64,000 nt of DNA from Deltaproteobacteria bacterium (GTDB lineage: Bacteria; Myxococcota; Kuafuiibacteriia; Kuafuiibacteriales; Kuafuiibacteriaceae), in contig WYAZ01000034.1 in the NCBI GenBank assembly GCA_011526105.1, forward strand, positions 1 to 64,000, in the 5' to 3' direction. The notes below the pieces were generated by a model. It made no database searches. It was not told the DNA's origin and was given only the letters and a program-made list of their open reading frames with translations. Shown here in pieces: positions 16,561-27,632 of the stretch (positions are counted from its first letter, which is position 1; every line of letters begins with the position of its first letter). Position numbers and translations under genes: made by a program.

Positions 16561-18777
16561 ATGAACGGCCCGGTGCTCGTGATCGACGATGGCAGCGCCG
16601 TCGTGTTCGAGCTGCGTTCGGTCCTGGGCCGACTCCGGATCGAGAACGAGCGCGCGTTGTCGGGTCCGCACGCGCTCCTCTTGGCAGACCGGCTGCGCCC
16701 CAGCCTCGTGCTCACGGATGTCTTCGTACCGGGAACGAACGGGGTCGCGCTGTCCCGCGCTCTCGAGGCACGGGGCATCGAGACCGTGATCCTGAGCAGC
16801 ACCGCACCCGCCTTCTCGTCGTCGGGCGCCCCCAACGCCGCCGTCATCCTGCGGGACGATCCATGGCGCGCGCCGTTGCTCAAACACTTGTTGCCGAAGG
16901 CCGGCGTACTCTCTGAGCGCACCAAGGCCGAGCTGGCGGCGTGGAGCCGGGGCGAGCCGCTCGGCTCCAACGGTCATGGGCCGGCCGAAGAAGGCGACTT
17001 TCGACCCGCTCCGCCCGCGAGATCCGAGGGCGCTGCGGATCTCGCGTCGATCCTCACGCGCATCGATGCACTCGAGGACTGCACCGCGATCACCCATCTC
17101 TTGCTCGCTGAGCTCGAGGGCACGACCGAGGTCGAAGCGCGGCTCGCGCCGCTTCGAAGGCACCCTCGGTCACAAGTCCGGCAGGCCGCGTTTCAGGCGA
17201 GCGCAGCCCTGTGCCGAGCAGAAGACGCCGCCGAGCTCGTGGCCGCAGCCGATGAGTCCAAGGCGCTGCTCTTTGTCCTCATCGGCGCGAGCACACGCGG
17301 CCCAGAGGGCCTCCCCTTTCTCGAGCACATCGCACTTCGCACCAGCGCTCCAGCGACCTTGCGCGTGAAGGCGCTCGCCGTCCACACACGCCGATCGACC
17401 ACCTCCGGCTCGAGCACGTGGCTCGCGACGCTCGTCGCAGATCCGTCCACGGAGGTGGTCCACGCTGCCCTTCGAGCGCTCGCATCGAAGGGCGTGGACA
17501 TGCTCGTACCGCTGCTCTCGAGGGTCGACCTCGGCCCAGAGACGCGAGCCGCCGCGCTGCTCGTCCTCGGACTTCGCGCCCCGCGCTCGAGCTTCGACGA
17601 AGGCATGGCCATCGCGCTCGAAGACCCGTCCGACCTCGTGCGCGCCGCGGCCTACGAGCTGGGATTCAAGCGTCTCGGGGGACGATGTGCATCGCTGCTC
17701 GAGCGACTCGTGGCGGAGGCCTCCGAGGGTGCGGGCTTCGCGGCGCTCGCCGGCGTCTTGGATCTGGACGAGGCGGGCTTCGGAGTCCTCGAGGCGATGG
17801 AGGCTTCGCCGCTGCTGCCTGCGGTGCGACGCGAGGTCGCCCGCGCCCTCTTTGAACGTTTCGGAAGAGGCGAAGCACCGAGCGAAGACCACGAACACCT
17901 GGTCGAAGACCTCAAAGAAGAGCTGGTCGAGACGCGCCCCGAAGCCCCCGCGGACTTCGTGGGCGACGAGCGCTTGGACCACGACTTCTACTCGGGCCCA
18001 ACCGAGCCACGGCGGCCGGCGGTGAGCGAACCGGCCCCGCCGCGGCCCAAGACCCCGCCCCCACGCCCACGCTCGATCAAGAGCAAGGCGCGAGCCCCCG
18101 CCGCCGAACCGGGTCCCTCGCCGCGTGAACTGCGTGCGCGACTCGACGCCGCCGAAGCGCAGGGCCAGGCGGGTTTTGCGGTCGTGGTGGAGATCGCGAG
18201 AGAGAAGCGCGCGCCCGTCGACCTCCGGACTCGCGCGATCCGACTCCTCGGCACTTCGCTCGCCGGTCCCGAGGCCTTCGTCGTGCTCGATGCTCTGCTC
18301 CTCGACGAAGCCGCTTCGGTTCAGAACGCGGCCCTCGGCGTGTTCATGGTCGCCAAGAAGCAACACCACGAGCGCTTCATCGAGGTCGCCACGCGCGTCG
18401 AGACCTCGGCCAAGGTCCGCGCGCGTGCGGTTCGGCACCTCGGGGCCCGGTACGCACGCGAGGAGATCACCGAACCCCTCGAGCGCCTCCTCTTTGATGG
18501 CTCGACACTCGTGCGGCGCGCTGCCCTCGAAGCGTTGTTCCCGACGCTCCGTGGTCTCGACGGGGACGGACTCGAGGAGGGCCTGCTCAATCTCATGGGG
18601 CATCACGCCTCCGACCGCGTCCGCGTCTCGGCCGCGCACGCCATCGGTGCTTTTGGAAGCGAGCGATCGCTGTCGGCCATCGACAGCTTGCTCACCTCGT
18701 TGTTTCAAGCATCGGAGGTGGGCCAGGCCGCGCGCCTCGCGGTCGTGCGGCTTCGCAAGCGGCTTGCGGCCGAGTAA
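16561..18777 (+). CDS. Response-regulator receiver domain protein with a C-terminal HEAT/PBS-lyase-like repeat domain
   Basis: N-terminal REC fold (VLVIDDG...LVLTDVFVPGTNG). Repeated ...VR..A..AL... helical HEAT-like units (PSTEVVHAALRALAS, DRVRVSAAHAIGAFG). Confidence 0.7.
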   Translation: MNGPVLVIDDGSAVVFELRSVLGRLRIENERALSGPHALLLADRLRPSLVLTDVFVPGTNGVALSRALEARGIETVILSSTAPAFSSSGAPNAAVILRDDPWRAPLLKHLLPKAGVLSERTKAELAAWSRGEPLGSNGHGPAEEGDFRPAPPARSEGAADLASILTRIDALEDCTAITHLLLAELEGTTEVEARLAPLRRHPRSQVRQAAFQASAALCRAEDAAELVAAADESKALLFVLIGASTRGPEGLPFLEHIALRTSAPATLRVKALAVHTRRSTTSGSSTWLATLVADPSTEVVHAALRALASKGVDMLVPLLSRVDLGPETRAAALLVLGLRAPRSSFDEGMAIALEDPSDLVRAAAYELGFKRLGGRCASLLERLVAEASEGAGFAALAGVLDLDEAGFGVLEAMEASPLLPAVRREVARALFERFGRGEAPSEDHEHLVEDLKEELVETRPEAPADFVGDERLDHDFYSGPTEPRRPAVSEPAPPRPKTPPPRPRSIKSKARAPAAEPGPSPRELRARLDAAEAQGQAGFAVVVEIAREKRAPVDLRTRAIRLLGTSLAGPEAFVVLDALLLDEAASVQNAALGVFMVAKKQHHERFIEVATRVETSAKVRARAVRHLGARYAREEITEPLERLLFDGSTLVRRAALEALFPTLRGLDGDGLEEGLLNLMGHHASDRVRVSAAHAIGAFGSERSLSAIDSLLTSLFQASEVGQAARLAVVRLRKRLAAE

Positions 18778-18781
18778 CTGT

Positions 18782-21700
18782 TCAGCGCACGGGCGGCTTC
18801 GCGCGAGGCGAAGGCAGCGGAGGCGGCTTGCCGCCATCGATCGAGGCGAGTTTCAAAACCTCGATGAGCTCGAGCAGCGGCCGTGAGAGGCTGCGTAGGG
18901 TCTCGAGGTTATTCGACTGCGACGAGACGAGCGGGCGCAGAGTGGACTCCATGCTCGCGAGATGGCTCGCGAGCATGGCCTCGAGCTTCGGATCGGTCTT
19001 CTGCTCGACGAGGATCTCGAGCTCCGGCCTCGCGAGGCGTTTGAGCGTCGCCTCGAGGTGCTGAAGCTGCGGCAACAGGAGCGCTTCCGCTTGACCGCTC
19101 TTCTCCTGGGACCTCGCGCTCACCTCGACCGCCTGCGCGATGTGCCCACGGATGCCGTCGAGCTGGTCGGAGAGCCCAGTGAGCGTTCCAATCGCCCGCG
19201 TCATGGGGTCTTCGTCCTTGCCGCCTTGGAGCTGCACCCGCCGGAAGCTCTTGCGCATCTCTTCCCATCGAGCGACCTCGTCCGGGGTCATGCGCCCTCG
19301 AAGCTCGGAGAGCTTGAGCAAGTTCTGTTCGGCCCCGGTCGTGAGCGTCTGAGCCTCGCCCACGTAGTGATCACCGATCATCGCGAGGAGCTCGTCGTCG
19401 TTCATGGCGGAGACGACCTTCTCGGCGAGCTTGTTCATGTTGCGGTAGCTGCCTTGCAGCTTGAACGGCGGCTCGGTCCGGAAGTTGTCGTCCATGGAGG
19501 CCGACCGGATGTACTCCTTGTTCACCTTGAGCAGCACCGCCTGCACTTGGAAGAGCTTCTGGAGCACCCCGATGATCTCCTCGGACTCGACCTTGGAGTA
19601 CGAATGCTGGAAGTCGGTGGTGGGGACGTCCTCGCCCTGCGCCAGCCGGATGAAGCGGTAGACGTCCTCTTGCGAGCGCGTGGCCAGCGGCGCCAAAACC
19701 GGGTTCGAGGTGAGCGCGTTTTCTACGTAGGACAGCGCGAAGACGTCTTCCTTGCCCGCGAGGATGTCGCCGAGGTTGTAGGTATCGGCGCGGTTCGCGA
19801 GCATGTCCGGGATCTGGAACTTGTCACCGGACTCCGTGTACGGATTTCCGGCCATGACCACCGCGAACTTCTTGCCGCGAAGGTCATAGGTTCGGGTGTT
19901 GCCCTTCCACACCCCTTCGATGCGACGCTGCCCGTCGCAGAGCGAAATGAACTTCTGCAGAAGCTCGGGATGCGTGTGCTGGATGTCGTCCAGATACAGC
20001 ATCACGTTGCTGCCCATCTCGAGCGCGAGGTTGATCTTCTCGACCTCTTGGCGCGCGGTGGCGTTGGGCGCCTCGGCGGGATCGATGGACGTGACGTTGT
20101 GACCCAGCGACGGACCGTTGATCTTCATGAAGACCATCCCGAGCCGGCTCGAGATGTACTCCATCAGCGTCGTCTTGCCGTAGCCAGGCGGCGAGATCAG
20201 GAGCAACAGACCCATGAGGTCGGTGCGTTTGGCGGCGCCCACCGCCCCCACCTGCTTGGCGAGATTGTCTCCGATGATCGGCAGGTAGACCTCGTTGAGC
20301 AGTCGATTCCGGACGAACGAGGTGAGCACCCGCGGCTTGAACTCATCGAGCCTTAGCCGCTTGCGCTCCCGTTCGAGGAGCGCGTGGCGAGCCTCGCGAA
20401 ACGCCATGAACCCAGGGACCCGGGTGGTCATGAACGCGCCGAGCCGCGACAAGAACTCGTCGAGCCGGAGCCCAAGCTTCTGGGACTGAATGCGCTGGTG
20501 TTGGCCCAGCAGCCCGTCGACCGTGACCTGCGTGAGCGCCGCGACCTCCTCGCGCTCGAGTCGAGTGGTCATCACCAGCACCGCGGCCTCGCGCACGACC
20601 GGGGTGTAGCGGGCTGCCTCCTCGGGGGACTTGCTGCTCAGGAACGCGTGAACCCACGCCTCGGCCAGCTCGAAGCGCTCGCGCACTTCAGCCTCGATCG
20701 AGCGAAGGTCCTCCTCGAAGGCCTGGCGTGTGCCATCGAGCCGCATCTGATCAAACAAGTGGTCGCGGAGCTCGACCGCCTCGCGGCTCGTGGTGAAACG
20801 GGGGTGGGGGTTCGCGAGCTCCTCGAAGAGATACCGACCCGCGACCTGCAAGTCGTGTTCGGGTGCATCGATCTCGTGCTCGGTCAGAAAGGTCGAGATC
20901 GCCACCGAGAGCTCGCGGGCAAAGCTGTCCACCGCGTCAGATCGCGAAAAGGCCGTGCGCAGACGGCCAAGGCTCTGAGCCCGGCGGTGCCACTTCGCGC
21001 GTTCCGCCTCGACGTTGAAGTTCGCCCAGAACAAGCACGCGAGCGCTCGGGCGTTCGGAGCGTAGCGGAGGAGACCGGCGGTCTCGCGCATGGCCACGAG
21101 CTTCTGCAGAAGCAGCGTCGCGTCGGCATCATGGAGACCACGCTCGTAGCCCTCCTCGTAGCGGGTGTTCGCGTACGCGCGTACGATCTCGAGCAGGTCC
21201 TTCTCGTCCACCGCCGCCCGATGGAGCTGAGCGAGGTCGAGCCCGTTTAGGCTTCTCTCGGCGTCAAAGAGGATGCTCGCCGCCAAGAACTCGCCGCGGT
21301 AGACGCTCGGATCTTCCGAGACGAGCTGCTGGTCCCAGTACGCCTTGGTCTCGAGGAACGCGGGGTCAGTGATGGGCTCGTAGAAGTCCGTCCCGGTGAG
21401 GTGCAGCGCCATGCCACCGTCGCGCGGAACGATGGTGAGCTCGAAGTTCTGCGTGTTGACCGAGAACTTGTGTTTGCCGAGCTTGATGACGTTGTCGCCG
21501 CCCTCGAAGAGCTCGACCTTGTCTCGCAGGTTACGGAGCGCGTTCTGGCGACCGCTCTTGAGCTTCGCCTCGAACTCGTCCGCCTTGACCTCGTCGCCCA
21601 CCGCACGCAGATCTTCGACGAGCTGACGCAGCTTCATGATCATCGCGTCGGAGGCGAAGTACGCGTTTAGCTCGTCTTCGAGCTTGAAGCTCTTGGTGCG

Positions 21701-24085
21701 TCGGTCCACACCTTCGAGGATGCGCTCGGCGGCCTTGGCCAGGTTTTGCGCGCGGCGCTGACGCTCGTCGAGCAGCTGCTGCTTCTTGGCGCCAAAGGCC
21801 TCGTAGACCTCTTCGCGCTTCGCGGAGAGCTGGGCCAAGAAGTCGTCGAACTCGGAGAACCGGCTCTCGAGTTCCTCGAGCTGGACCAGGAGGCGAGAGA
21901 GCCCCTCTTCGCACTTCTCGGCGGTGTCGGACATCGACAAGCCGCTCGAGACCGCCTGACCAAAGAGCTTGAACTGCGCGCCGAACTCGGCGCGGCCCTC
22001 GGTGCCGAGCAGCTCTTTGCGATGCGCCTGGAGCGTGGCGCGGACGCGGTTGAGCTGTCCAAAGACCTCCGAGATGCCTTCGAGGATCTGCGTGCGCTGC
22101 GTGATGTCGTCGATCTGCAGGCCGCTCACCACCTCGGAGAGCAGATTGAGGCCTTCGGACAAGGCTTCGATCTCGGCCGCGACCGGCTGGATCTCATGAG
22201 CCTTGTGGATGCTCGCGATCTGCTTGTGAGTCTCCTCGATCCGCCCGACCAGAGGCGAGAGTGAATCCTCGGACAGCAGGAAGCGCACACAGGCGTCGCT
22301 GACCTCCTCGAAGCGCGCCTTCACGCTCTCTTCGAGGGCATCCACCGCCGCGAGATCGATGTACCGAAGCTCGCGCAGCGTGATGAGGTGCCCGCGTTGC
22401 CCGCGCAGCGCGGACAGCGCCTTCAGGTACTCCTCGACCCGCCCTAGAGCGTCCGGGCGCAGGTCCACGAACATCTTGTCCTGGACGTCCTTGGCTTCCG
22501 CCAGAGCTTCATCCGCGCGACGTTTGATCGCCTGCACCTTCTCGAACTCATCGACCACGCCTTCCGCGTTCTTCTTGATGTCGTCGAGCGTGGCCCTGAG
22601 GTTCTCGGTCTCGCCTTTGTCGAGCCAGAAGTAGGTGTCGATCACGCGGTTTACGTGCGCGATGAGGTCTTCGTAGAGCTGCCTGGTGGGGCGTGGGTTC
22701 TCGATCAGCTTCTTGATGCTGTACGCATCCGAGATGCCACGCACGAGCTCGGCGTTGCCGATGTTTGTGAGGAAGGAGTCTTCTTTGGGCGCCTTCGCCG
22801 CGAACTCCTCCGAGCAGAAGGGCGTCTGCCAGATCTGCATGGGGTGGACGCGCACCGGCTCCTCGCTGACGGAGCGAAACACTACGAGGCTCCCGTCCTC
22901 GAACAGCGTGTATCCGTGGCACTGGATCGGGTTCTGCACCTCCTTGCGGATCAGGTTGTAGGGCAGAAGCAAGATCCGGCCGCTCTCTCGGTGGAGAAAG
23001 ACATAGAGCACGTCCTCTCCGTTGGGGGAGCGCACGACGCGCAAGAACTCGAGATCGGTGATGGCCTCGTCGAAGACCTTGGTGTCCCCGGTCTGAAGGT
23101 AGTAGCCGCCGGGGAAGACGATGCCGTGGTTCTCGGGGAGCTGCAGGCACGCGAGGCCGAGGGCGTCGATGCGTTTGACCGTCTTGGTGCGTGTATTGAA
23201 GACGAGATACCGAAAGGCCTCTTCCTTGTACGGGAGCACCTTCAAGAGAATCAGTCCGCCGAGCTTGGCGTAGTGGATCTCGGCGTCATCGAGCGCCTGC
23301 CGCGGCTCTTGAACCGGCTCGGCGTAGATGCCTTTGCCATCATTGGTGTTGTCTTCGATCTTGATGGTGAGATCGCCGCCCACCGTCTCCACAAACACCT
23401 CGTTCAAGATGTTCACGTGCGGATGACGCCCATGCACATGGCTGTCTCGGTCCGTGGCGGTCCACTCGAAGTCGTGGGAGGGTGGAAAGGCGTTGTCCTC
23501 ATCCCCGCGGTTGTCGATGTACGTGACCTTCCCGCGTGGATCGAGCGCCCAGCGGAACACCTTGACGTCATGGATGTTCTGGCCGACCTGAAAGACCGCG
23601 AGCAGCTTGCCTTCGGACCGGATGCGAAGCTGCAGGAGCTTAGCGTCCTTGTAGTACTGGTAGAGCTCCTGGAACTCTTTGACGAAGGTGGGATCTTGGA
23701 GAAAACCGCCGCCCTCACTCAGGGCCAAGTTACCTAGGTCGAAGCCGCCGGCCTCGTTGCGCTCGAAGCGGTGGAGCGCAAACACGTCGCCGACCTTGGT
23801 GGTGGTCCGAAGCCCCAGGTGCACGTTGTACCCAAAGAGCAGTACCCCTCCCACGCTGACGATGTCCCGGGGGATGCAGTTGTTCTCGGTGCGCACGCGC
23901 TCGTTGCCGATGACGTTGAGCTCGGTGCCTCCGAACTTCTGCTTGCGCTTGTCGTTGAGTCGATCGGTGCGCGCCCCCAGGGCCTTCGCGGCCTCGAGCA
24001 GGCGAGCACGGATGACCTCGTAGCTCCCGGTCTCGAGGGCGGCCGCATCGGCCCCCGCTTGTGGTGTCTCGGCTCCGCTCGACAT
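18782..24085 (-). CDS. Giant (about 1767 aa) AAA+ ATPase. It has a beta-rich N-terminal domain, about 800 aa of helical/coiled-coil region, an AAA_5/MoxR-McrB-like P-loop core and a helical Pro-rich C-terminus. It is co-operonic with flotillin
   Basis: Walker A LLLISPPGYGKTTLMEY (residues about 1296-1312; nt about 20160-20205). Walker B VMLYLDDIQ. Sensor region VVMAGNPY. The track start at 24091 is GTG. The ATG at 24083-24085 is preceded by GGAG at an 8-nt spacing. The gene starts 37-43 nt downstream of the flotillin stop. Confidence 0.8.
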   Translation of the reverse strand: MSSGAETPQAGADAAALETGSYEVIRARLLEAAKALGARTDRLNDKRKQKFGGTELNVIGNERVRTENNCIPRDIVSVGGVLLFGYNVHLGLRTTTKVGDVFALHRFERNEAGGFDLGNLALSEGGGFLQDPTFVKEFQELYQYYKDAKLLQLRIRSEGKLLAVFQVGQNIHDVKVFRWALDPRGKVTYIDNRGDEDNAFPPSHDFEWTATDRDSHVHGRHPHVNILNEVFVETVGGDLTIKIEDNTNDGKGIYAEPVQEPRQALDDAEIHYAKLGGLILLKVLPYKEEAFRYLVFNTRTKTVKRIDALGLACLQLPENHGIVFPGGYYLQTGDTKVFDEAITDLEFLRVVRSPNGEDVLYVFLHRESGRILLLPYNLIRKEVQNPIQCHGYTLFEDGSLVVFRSVSEEPVRVHPMQIWQTPFCSEEFAAKAPKEDSFLTNIGNAELVRGISDAYSIKKLIENPRPTRQLYEDLIAHVNRVIDTYFWLDKGETENLRATLDDIKKNAEGVVDEFEKVQAIKRRADEALAEAKDVQDKMFVDLRPDALGRVEEYLKALSALRGQRGHLITLRELRYIDLAAVDALEESVKARFEEVSDACVRFLLSEDSLSPLVGRIEETHKQIASIHKAHEIQPVAAEIEALSEGLNLLSEVVSGLQIDDITQRTQILEGISEVFGQLNRVRATLQAHRKELLGTEGRAEFGAQFKLFGQAVSSGLSMSDTAEKCEEGLSRLLVQLEELESRFSEFDDFLAQLSAKREEVYEAFGAKKQQLLDERQRRAQNLAKAAERILEGVDRRTKSFKLEDELNAYFASDAMIMKLRQLVEDLRAVGDEVKADEFEAKLKSGRQNALRNLRDKVELFEGGDNVIKLGKHKFSVNTQNFELTIVPRDGGMALHLTGTDFYEPITDPAFLETKAYWDQQLVSEDPSVYRGEFLAASILFDAERSLNGLDLAQLHRAAVDEKDLLEIVRAYANTRYEEGYERGLHDADATLLLQKLVAMRETAGLLRYAPNARALACLFWANFNVEAERAKWHRRAQSLGRLRTAFSRSDAVDSFARELSVAISTFLTEHEIDAPEHDLQVAGRYLFEELANPHPRFTTSREAVELRDHLFDQMRLDGTRQAFEEDLRSIEAEVRERFELAEAWVHAFLSSKSPEEAARYTPVVREAAVLVMTTRLEREEVAALTQVTVDGLLGQHQRIQSQKLGLRLDEFLSRLGAFMTTRVPGFMAFREARHALLERERKRLRLDEFKPRVLTSFVRNRLLNEVYLPIIGDNLAKQVGAVGAAKRTDLMGLLLLISPPGYGKTTLMEYISSRLGMVFMKINGPSLGHNVTSIDPAEAPNATARQEVEKINLALEMGSNVMLYLDDIQHTHPELLQKFISLCDGQRRIEGVWKGNTRTYDLRGKKFAVVMAGNPYTESGDKFQIPDMLANRADTYNLGDILAGKEDVFALSYVENALTSNPVLAPLATRSQEDVYRFIRLAQGEDVPTTDFQHSYSKVESEEIIGVLQKLFQVQAVLLKVNKEYIRSASMDDNFRTEPPFKLQGSYRNMNKLAEKVVSAMNDDELLAMIGDHYVGEAQTLTTGAEQNLLKLSELRGRMTPDEVARWEEMRKSFRRVQLQGGKDEDPMTRAIGTLTGLSDQLDGIRGHIAQAVEVSARSQEKSGQAEALLLPQLQHLEATLKRLARPELEILVEQKTDPKLEAMLASHLASMESTLRPLVSSQSNNLETLRSLSRPLLELIEVLKLASIDGGKPPPLPSPRAKPPVR

Positions 24086-24128
24086 CGTCACTGCTCCGGA
24101 CCAGACCTAGAGGCCCAAGAGAACGTCT

Positions 24129-26290: not shown

Positions 26291-27016
26291 TCACTGCGAT
26301 TCGCGCTGCGCAGCCCGAGCCGCGCTCGAGCTCGCTTTGCTGGCCTCCGGTTGCTCGGGCTGAACCGGCTCGACGAGGAAGACCTGCTTCTCCGGATCGT
26401 AGTTCACGATCAGAGCTTCGGTGCCCTTCCTGAGATCGTTGGTCTGTGAGCAGCGGATCTGGATGAGGAGCCCTGCCCCACCGTCGATCACCGTGGCTTG
26501 CCCGAAGCTCTCCGTCACCTTGCCGGTGGTGACCTCGCAGACCTCGCCCACGAAGTGCTTCAATCGTCCGCCCTGATGCGTGCGAAAGAGCGGACCGAGC
26601 GGCCAGACCAAGATCGAAGTGATGGGCACCGCAGCGACCAGCGACACCACGAACACGAGCGCCCCGATGATCGCGTTCGGCAAGAACGGAAGATGCGGTG
26701 CGACGTGCACCATGCCTAGAAAAGAAAGTACCCATGATGACAAGACGGTGAGACTCAGGACCACGGTGACGGGCGCGTTTCGGAGTTTCAGCGCGTGGAC
26801 CAAGCCGGCGAGTCCAAGACCCGCCTCCGCCGCCCCTTCTGCCGCCGCTTCTGCCGCCCCCTCCGCGAGACCTTCAGCCGCACCTTCCGCAGCGTCGAGG
26901 ATCTCGACGTCGAGGACACCCAGGATCACGAAGCCCCAGTAGAGCATCACGAGCCCGAGCAGCGTGGTGAAGATGACCGTGGGGAAGGCGACGATCTGCG
27001 CTAGAAACTCACTCAT
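26291..27016 (-). CDS. NfeD-like / YqiJ-family inner-membrane protein (partner of flotillin)
   Basis: TM helices, an acidic (AEGAA)n linker, and a C-terminal OB-fold-like beta-domain (GEVCEVTTGKVTESFGQATVIDGGAGLLIQIRC...ALIVNYDPEKQVFLVEP). Position upstream of flotillin as in yqiJ-yqiK. Confidence 0.65.
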   Translation of the reverse strand: MSEFLAQIVAFPTVIFTTLLGLVMLYWGFVILGVLDVEILDAAEGAAEGLAEGAAEAAAEGAAEAGLGLAGLVHALKLRNAPVTVVLSLTVLSSWVLSFLGMVHVAPHLPFLPNAIIGALVFVVSLVAAVPITSILVWPLGPLFRTHQGGRLKHFVGEVCEVTTGKVTESFGQATVIDGGAGLLIQIRCSQTNDLRKGTEALIVNYDPEKQVFLVEPVQPEQPEASKASSSAARAAQRESQ

Positions 27017-27149
27017 CGTCCAGATGCCCCCGCTCTCTCTCCGTCAACCTCCGGCGGCCTTCGTAGACACGAGTCCGCGCCGGTCCAGCGACGATGGCAC
27101 GAATCCCGACGGGTGGGGAGGCTTGCCCGAAAGCGAGCGCCCCCCCACG

Positions 27150-27632
27150 ATGCGTCGGGTGAGCTCCGCCGCCGACCTTACCTACCTCAGACGCGCCGTC
27201 GAGCTCGCGCTCGAGGCCGAGCGCGCCGGTAACATGCCCATCGGCTCGGTGTTGGTGCTCGAGGGTCACATCGTCGCCGAGGGGGCCAACGAGATCCTGG
27301 TGCCGCAGTACCACCCAGGAAAACACGCGGAGATGGTCACACTCTCGAAGCTACCGGCCGCGCTGTGGCCGCGCGCGAGTGAACTCTCTTGTTACTCCAC
27401 GCTCGAGCCTTGCCTGATGTGTATGGGCTCGCTCCTCCTGCATGGCGTCGGGCGCGTGGTGTACGGCGCGAAGGACGACGAGGGCGGCGCGGAGTACATC
27501 ACGAAGCACTTGCCGCCCTACTACCAGGACGAGCATCGGAGTTTTCGGGTCGAGGGCCCACTCCTCGAAGCCGAGTGCAGACCGCTCTACAAACGCGCGA
27601 GGGCTCGGTTTCGGTCGCTGCCTTGTGGGTGA
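27150..27632 (+). CDS. Nucleoside/nucleotide deaminase, CMP/dCMP (cytidine-deaminase-like, TadA/guanine-deaminase) family
   Basis: The ORF 26964.. is trimmed to the ATG at 27150 (MRRVSSAADLTYLRRAVELA...). Zinc motifs HAEM and PCLMC are present. Confidence 0.75.
   Translation: MRRVSSAADLTYLRRAVELALEAERAGNMPIGSVLVLEGHIVAEGANEILVPQYHPGKHAEMVTLSKLPAALWPRASELSCYSTLEPCLMCMGSLLLHGVGRVVYGAKDDEGGAEYITKHLPPYYQDEHRSFRVEGPLLEAECRPLYKRARARFRSLPCG

Follow-up and report, generated by a model that had tools for sequence, protein, structure and literature searches.

Within the first 64,000 nucleotides of contig WYAZ01000034.1 (assembly GCA_011526105.1, Deltaproteobacteria bacterium, Myxococcota), a stretch referred to here as the window, lies a three-gene operon whose last gene encodes a giant ATPase. 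We find that this ATPase is a soluble protein with a single, apparently motif-complete AAA+ module and a long N-terminal arm, and that its gene is locked to those of a flotillin and an NfeD-type protein. It is a new member of a widespread family (DUF3686-DUF7902-AAA), which has been described computationally and is uncharacterised. On balance, we think that it probably acts as a dedicated functional partner of the flotillin/NfeD system.

The gene is real, and its coordinates and main sequence landmarks, as first read from the DNA, are correct. The reading frame occupies 18782..24091 on the minus strand of the window (open reading frame list and translation) and has a third-position GC content of 0.86, which real genes in this stretch (65% GC) typically show. 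Translation starts at the ATG at 24085, with the sequence GGAG located 8 nt upstream, and an identical 1767-aa product appears in public gene calls from Logan metagenome contigs. No transmembrane segment is predicted in the protein.

The gene directly upstream encodes a YqiK-type flotillin, a piece of context that the first reading of the DNA had overlooked. In BLASTP comparisons, its 682-aa product shows 28% identity to E. coli YqiK over 432 aa (E 9e-39), and it gives an NCBIfam FloT match (E 4e-5); a Pfam-A search of the same protein returned no Band_7/SPFH domain, even at E <=10. The protein has one N-terminal transmembrane helix (residues 1-30). Because a positively charged stretch follows this helix, the bulk of the flotillin should reside in the cytoplasm. 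In several genomes, such as those of Hymenobacter and Deinococcus, automated annotation leaves the flotillin gene "hypothetical", which helps conceal the operon. The 241-aa product of the first gene is of the YqiJ/NfeD type. A profile of its family matches E. coli YqiJ in hhalign (probability 92.5%, E 4.8e-7), about three transmembrane segments are recognized, and the Hymenobacter orthologue is annotated as DUF1449.

This arrangement is strongly conserved. We compared gene neighbourhoods at 80 related loci, drawn from six or more phyla; two of the loci lack upstream DNA, leaving 78 that could be tested for the flotillin. In all 78, a flotillin gene lies directly upstream of the ATPase gene, on the same strand, with a median gap of 60 bp and, in many loci, a 4-bp overlap. 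A YqiJ-like gene is present in 71 of the 80. Other conserved neighbour clusters that were identified comprise PspA, DUF2170/Tir, PLD and rhomboid proteins. Genes for PspA and a DUF2170/CesT/Tir-type chaperone lie upstream in 14 of the 80 loci, all of them gammaproteobacterial, and the same pair is found on a Hymenobacter plasmid; a Deinococcus plasmid has the three-gene form with no additions. A PLD/HKD hydrolase gene follows the ATPase gene in 7-8 gammaproteobacterial loci, and a gene for a rhomboid protease (~186 aa, PF01694, E 1.6e-21) adjoins it in 8 of the 80, downstream in most. These last two neighbours point to membrane-protein or lipid processing. The operon of the window is of the abbreviated, three-gene form. 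A scan of this operon for promoters and terminators gave counts at chance level. Coordinates of the genes and domains are collected in Table 1.

Table 1. Genes and protein domains of the ATPase operon, with one rhomboid example from a related locus. Positions refer to the window unless a locus is named; domain boundaries are given as residues of the ATPase.
Feature	Residues or length	Position	Strand	Remarks
Coding sequence of the DUF3686-DUF7902-AAA+ ATPase	1767 aa	18785..24085	(-)	Stop codon 18782-18784
N-terminal helix ahead of head	19-51	23933..24031	(-)	Helix in AF2 model; conserved GG.YEV.R.RL motif
Beta-rich head	57-420	22826..23917	(-)	Inside the DUF3686 match
Helical-bundle rod	438-859	21509..22774	(-)	Helices of 16-58 aa with breaks (AF2); includes DUF7902
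Family-specific, mostly alpha-helical middle domain	861-1250	20336..21505	(-)	pLDDT >94
Single AAA+ ATPase core	1251-1445	19751..20335	(-)	AAA_5 and AAA Pfam matches; Foldseek
Lid and post-AAA helical domain	1446-1625	19211..19750	(-)	Helices in AF2 model; conserved FKLQGSYRNMNK and DHY.GE.Q.LT
Variable C-terminal helices and disordered Pro-rich tail	1626-1767	18785..19210	(-)	Low pLDDT
YqiK-type flotillin (SPFH)	682 aa	24129..26177	(-)	Directly upstream; ends 43 bp before ATPase start
YqiJ/NfeD-type (DUF1449) multi-pass membrane protein	241 aa	26291..27016	(-)	First gene of the operon
Rhomboid protease, example		L023:13460-14020		Also in loci L036, L059, L061-L065

On the far side of the ATPase gene lies a convergent gene (16561-18777, plus strand), which ends 4 bp from the ATPase stop codon and whose product joins a response-regulator receiver domain to HEAT repeats; a homologue of it was found in none of the 80 related loci. 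A gene for a 5'-3' exonuclease, also near the ATPase gene, is likewise not a conserved neighbour. At the other end of the operon is a divergent gene for a cytidine/dCMP deaminase. Its longest open reading frame, 26964-27632 (plus strand), overlaps the 5' end of the YqiJ-like frame by ~50 bp. The true start of the deaminase is probably further downstream, since public gene calls give a shorter protein of 160 aa.

To describe the architecture of the ATPase, we draw on two AlphaFold2 (AF2) models built from 100-sequence alignments, one of residues 1-900 and one of residues 881-1767, with predicted local distance difference test (pLDDT) values of 88.4 and 86.2, respectively. An initial annotation of the window had described a beta-rich N-terminal region of about 430 aa with no recognisable motif. 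The beta-rich character holds, with ~27 strands modelled at pLDDT >90, but the region does belong to a known family: Pfam PF12458 (DUF3686) matches residues 37-486 (22628-23977) with E 4e-208 and 691.8 bits against a cut-off of 25. The head is predicted to adopt a divergent beta-propeller-like fold, and the clathrin terminal domain and linker are among its top Foldseek matches. When 1.84 billion representatives were searched by phmmer with only the head as query, 775 proteins were retrieved. Those that are full-length all measure 1590-2036 aa with the head N-terminal, and no stand-alone head domain was seen in this set, only proteins of the same architecture or fragments.

The initial annotation had also proposed that a coiled coil of roughly 800 aa follows the head. 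The models instead divide this region in two. Its first ~420 aa are predicted to form spectrin-like helical bundles, within which PF25472 (DUF7902) matches residues 607-691 (22013-22267; E 1.6e-27, 95.9 bits against a cut-off of 26). The next ~390 aa form a domain that, judging from the model, is neither a coiled coil nor a degenerate AAA module. This middle domain has no Pfam match, a 22-sequence profile of it found nothing among PDB sequences, and its predicted secondary structure is almost all helix, lacking a beta-alpha-beta pattern. The concern that further, degenerate AAA modules might fill the middle of the protein is thereby answered. At the other end, the Pro-rich tail noted earlier is present (18785-18835), and the protein does end in GGKPPPLPSPRAKPPVR, but this tail is not a conserved part of the family. 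Over residues 1626-1767, identity is 15% and occupancy 64%, and the C-termini vary between lineages. Actinobacterial proteins end shortly beyond the lid, and some Polyangiaceae proteins extend to 2060-2130 aa. Among these long homologues, several from Polyangiaceae/Sorangium (L007, L008, L016, L071) end in a conserved PGFGARF...LFE segment. Two Sorangium-type homologues (P0085, P0108) carry a PilZ match (PF07238), which suggests that a cyclic di-GMP input has been fused to some family members.

The nucleotide-binding motifs lie where they had first been placed, near residues 1296-1312 and 1366-1370. Walker A reads SPPGYGKT at residues 1298-1305, followed by T1306 (20168-20191), and Walker B reads MLYLDD at residues 1362-1367 (19985-20002). 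The whole protein contains one P-loop, one Walker-B-like motif and one Pfam AAA module, and the earlier description of a single AAA module therefore stands. An NPY motif near residue 1418 had been likened to an arginine finger. We reassign it: N1414 of NPY (19844-19846), at the end of a core strand, is the probable sensor 1, and R1432 in the sequence NRAD (19790-19792) is the arginine-finger candidate by motif position and alignment. By position, R1548 in GSYRN is a candidate for sensor 2. All three residues are invariant in the alignment and plausibly placed. A beta-hairpin lies ahead of the sensor-1 strand (segment positions 508-521 of the AF2 model of residues 881-1767).

To which class does this core belong? 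The initial annotation had asked whether the P-loop might be of another kind, such as ABC or SMC. It is AAA+, because both Walker motifs fall within 70 residues after the helical region and because the structural matches are AAA+ proteins. Within AAA+, the earlier label "dynein/MoxR-like" survives in part. Among Pfam families, AAA_5 ranks first in each of the 26 family members scanned, which come from many phyla, and it spans Walker A to sensor 1; in the window protein, it covers residues 1294-1417 (E 1.8e-6, 32.6 bits against a cut-off of 22, profile positions 2-125 of 139). The classical AAA family (PF00004) matches residues 1294-1375 at E 6.8e-6 (27-29 bits against a cut-off of 21.2), over only profile positions 1-73 or 1-89 of 131. 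In Foldseek, the core retrieves RuvB, ClpA/B/C, NorQ, CbbQ2 and MCM (E 6e-6 to 2e-4), and no classical AAA members are found in the top 50. By target-normalised TM-score, NorQ and CbbQ2 rank highest (0.43-0.59, versus ~0.33 for RuvB), whereas by E-value RuvB and the Clp proteins do equally well or better. Profile searches of the PDB matched Rix7, NVL, p97 and RuvB around Walker A only, and a single-sequence search gave Walker A matches only (E ~0.01). Alignments of the AAA profile to single E. coli sequences with hhalign were short and mutually contradictory and leave the clade undecided (RuvB, 1.7e-8 over 45 columns; FtsH, 1.3e-6 over 34 columns; RavA, 1.9e-3 over 83 columns). AAA_5/MoxR is thus the best match, and the assignment is soft.

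This likeness raises the possibility that the ATPase is a MoxR-type maturation chaperone, comparable to NorQ, CbbQ or RavA, which would activate one specific enzyme complex or insert cofactors into it, the flotillin being incidental or at most a means of localisation. The Pfam ranking and the TM-scores fit such a role, as does the sequence AGNPY..G..F.IPDML.NR, which resembles the ATQNP.E..G...LP.A.LDRF generally seen in MoxR proteins. However, the RuvB and Clp matches just described are no worse by E-value, and RavA is the weakest of the three hhalign comparisons. No VWA domain was seen among the neighbours in the window, in the related loci inspected or in those conserved neighbour clusters that were identified. 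In addition, no client enzyme is found among the conserved neighbours; the partners that are conserved are the flotillin and YqiJ. We consider a chaperone role of this type improbable.

Conservation along the protein, expressed as identity to the window protein in a 78-sequence alignment, is highest in the AAA core (80%, across phyla). The head and the lid each reach 59%, the latter with 100% occupancy, and the rod and middle domain 47% and 42%. No variation is seen across phyla in Walker A, Walker B, sensor 1 or R1432. Apart from the C-terminal 140 aa, every domain is present in every lineage, at ~100% occupancy, and full-length homologues are collinear over at least 93% of their length, with 46-64% identity for most and 86% for one; in one of the searches, identities were 56-86% at 93-100% coverage. 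Clustered at 90% identity, the homologues form more than 6500 groups, and contigs representing one genome per species contain at least 595 loci of the family. These loci span Myxococcota, Actinomycetota, Gammaproteobacteria, Planctomycetota, Acidobacteriota and Eremiobacterota, and plasmid records add Deinococcota and Bacteroidota. Of 72,556 plasmid records, 13 carry the gene, mostly megaplasmids or chromids; no copy was found in a phage collection.

Such a distribution bears on whether the protein could be the nucleoside triphosphatase (NTPase) of an anti-phage or other conflict system, related for instance to the MoxR-VWA-beta-propeller systems. A large NTPase combined with a propeller and a coiled coil does recall those systems in general terms, and some gammaproteobacterial loci add the PLD/HKD hydrolase. 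Yet defence genes evolve fast, and here identity in the core is 80% across phyla and the architecture does not vary. Moreover, the gene sits among chromosomal housekeeping genes, is rare on plasmids and absent from the phage set, and no PADLOC system is matched significantly, the one LmuB match being weak and driven by coiled-coil sequence. We therefore regard a conflict role as very unlikely.

In NCBI and Pfam, the family bears the name "DNA repair ATPase", which would make it an ATPase of the SMC/Rad50/SbcC kind. We find nothing in support of a role in DNA repair. Apart from the name, one can point to the LmuB match (LmuB being SMC-like; residues 471-760, E 8e-4), to recJ near the P. aeruginosa gene and to the exonuclease gene in the window. 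The LmuB match is confined to the helical rod, however, and neither of the two genes is a conserved neighbour, those that are conserved encoding membrane proteins. In SMC and Rad50 proteins, the Walker motifs are split between the two ends of a coiled coil; here, they lie ~60 aa apart in one AAA+ core, and there is no ABC or SMC match in Pfam. Our literature search found no paper tying DUF3686/PF12458 to repair. This reading is already largely refuted, and the chance that it is correct is close to negligible. The label itself probably arose from coiled-coil similarity to SMC-like proteins, of which the LmuB match would be an example. The great length of the protein and its match to the "dynein-related" AAA_5 family might still suggest a dynein- or midasin-like motor with degenerate AAA modules in the middle, but the protein lacks the six concatenated modules of such motors, having one P-loop and one Walker B, and residues 438-1250, predicted with high confidence to be almost all helical, give no AAA match in Pfam or in the profile search of PDB sequences, so that within the limits of prediction this idea is refuted and we give it next to no weight.

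The operon has been noticed before. Ravi et al. 2024 (PMC11237479) described it together with a "novel AAA+ ATPase with coiled-coil and beta-propeller", proposed a function in the ATP-dependent remodelling of membranes and complexes, and reported a three-transmembrane YqiJ/YuaF protein in the operon, sometimes joined by CesT/Tir-PspA and a PLD hydrolase. They also remarked on abbreviated operons, which lack PspA and are more widespread. A search of the literature for DUF3686, PF12458 or "DNA repair ATPase" in connection with flotillin returned nothing. The window gene is an ordinary member of its family; the interest lies in the family, to which comparative genomics has already drawn attention.

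One orthologue is found in P. aeruginosa. There, the 1746-aa protein P0132 (locus L085, 3722-13952) is encoded after genes for DUF2170, PspA, a 213-aa protein and a 688-aa protein; genes for PLD, YaeQ, RecJ (recJ) and an M4 peptidase then follow. From this gene order, and from the reported sizes of PA3729 and PA3730, we infer that P0132 corresponds to PA3728 and adjoins the bac cluster, PA3732-PA3729, which was published as four genes (PMC2587700). PA3728 would then be an unstudied fifth gene. Deletion of the pspA-like PA3731 causes defects in biofilm formation, swarming and virulence, and osmotic shock induces this gene (PMC2587700). PA3729 has been predicted in print to be an outer-membrane protein, which is at odds with its homology to flotillin, a protein of the inner membrane. 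PA3728 appears in the literature in mutation and gene lists only; one of these names it as an "ATPase" with recurrent mutations among cystic fibrosis isolates (PMC8190622).

How might the ATPase serve its neighbours? In the arrangement we favour, the three genes would encode one membrane module, with the YqiJ/NfeD-type protein and the YqiK-type flotillin in the membrane and the giant AAA+ protein as the cytoplasmic ATPase subunit. A long arm composed of the propeller-like head, the spectrin-like rod and the family-specific helical domain would bear the AAA_5/MoxR-like motor at its C-terminal end. The initial annotation had thought oligomerisation likely, which is reasonable for an AAA+ protein. 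Motor domains may assemble into a ring, as AAA+ proteins do, with heads and rods docking on flotillin/NfeD assemblies at the cytoplasmic face of the inner membrane. ATP hydrolysis could then remodel these assemblies by opening, disassembling or recycling them. It is also possible that hydrolysis acts instead on client proteins held by the assemblies. Where PspA and the CesT/Tir-type chaperone are co-encoded, the ATPase may act on PspA polymers as well. The scaffold, which otherwise operates without ATP, would in this way gain an energy-dependent partner. The rationale for remodelling is that FloA-NfeD of S. aureus needs no ATP to hold unfolded proteins (Ukleja et al. 2024, PMC11222466), and that a Vps4-like ATPase appears to be absent in bacteria, according to a 2025 review (PMC7619361).

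Several observations weigh against a dedicated partnership with the flotillin or against parts of this mechanism. The evidence that links the ATPase to the flotillin consists of gene neighbourhood, and our search of the literature found no experimental work on any member of the family. The link is also not absolute, since no gene for flotillin or YqiJ lies within 8 kb of a copy in Sorangium sp. So ce513 (L081, 8001-13349). That copy has unannotated genes of the opposite strand and a FIST-domain gene as its neighbours, and it may be a paralogue whose flotillin partner is encoded at another site. The 64-kb window yielded no PspA gene. Finally, inspection of the sequence between beta2 and alpha2 reveals no evident canonical aromatic pore loop, which makes a threading unfoldase mechanism doubtful.

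A bolder version of the partnership with flotillin can be considered. Flotillins and PspA-type proteins organise and repair bacterial membranes, and how their large assemblies are dismantled or reset is not known. The family described here is large, strikingly conserved and flotillin-adjacent, and is thus an obvious candidate for the energy source. It could be the missing ATP-driven recycler of bacteria, a ring of propeller-armed AAA+ motors that opens or disassembles flotillin/NfeD cages and co-encoded PspA polymers. We offer this idea tentatively and consider it rather doubtful in so specific a form. If true, the recycler would be a functional analogue of Vps4/NSF, evolved independently from the MoxR-like AAA+ lineage. 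The P. aeruginosa orthologue, which we take to be PA3728, makes the hypothesis directly testable. The "DNA repair ATPase" mislabel, meanwhile, hides the family from membrane biologists.

Comparison with better-known systems helps to place the ATPase. Its resemblance to clathrin heavy chain is one of architecture only, the shared plan being an N-terminal beta-propeller that leads into a long helical leg. The two are unrelated in sequence, and clathrin lacks an ATPase. PspA belongs to the ESCRT-III superfamily. With Vps4/ESCRT-III and NSF/SNARE, the likeness is a functional analogy only, namely an AAA+ motor co-encoded with polymer-forming membrane scaffolds. In contrast to Vps4, the window ATPase shows no match to the MIT domain and has DUF3686 at its N-terminus; its membership of the classical clade is not demonstrable, and apart from the generic AAA+ fold no homology to Vps4 can be detected. 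HflK/C-FtsH offers a parallel, in that a scaffold of the SPFH family is paired genetically or functionally with an AAA+ ATPase at the inner membrane. FtsH, however, is a membrane-anchored, classical AAA protease, whereas the window ATPase lacks both transmembrane segment and protease domain, its bulk is predicted to be cytoplasmic, and the flotillin here is of the YqiK type.

With the MoxR family (NorQ, CbbQ, RavA; AAA_5/AAA_3), the core shares its best Pfam family, its top TM-scores, a single AAA+ module, a similar pattern of sensor-1 and arginine-finger motifs and the absence of an aromatic pore-loop motif. It differs in having no VWA partner, in its N-terminal extension of ~1250 aa, and in a Walker A region more like that of RuvB or classical AAA proteins. 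The closest counterpart is the family and operon of Ravi et al. Although the window locus lacks the attached PspA, CesT/Tir, PLD and rhomboid genes, and although its Pro-rich tail is lineage-specific, it has the same domain order, full-length collinear homology, and the same operon of YqiJ-like protein, flotillin and ATPase.

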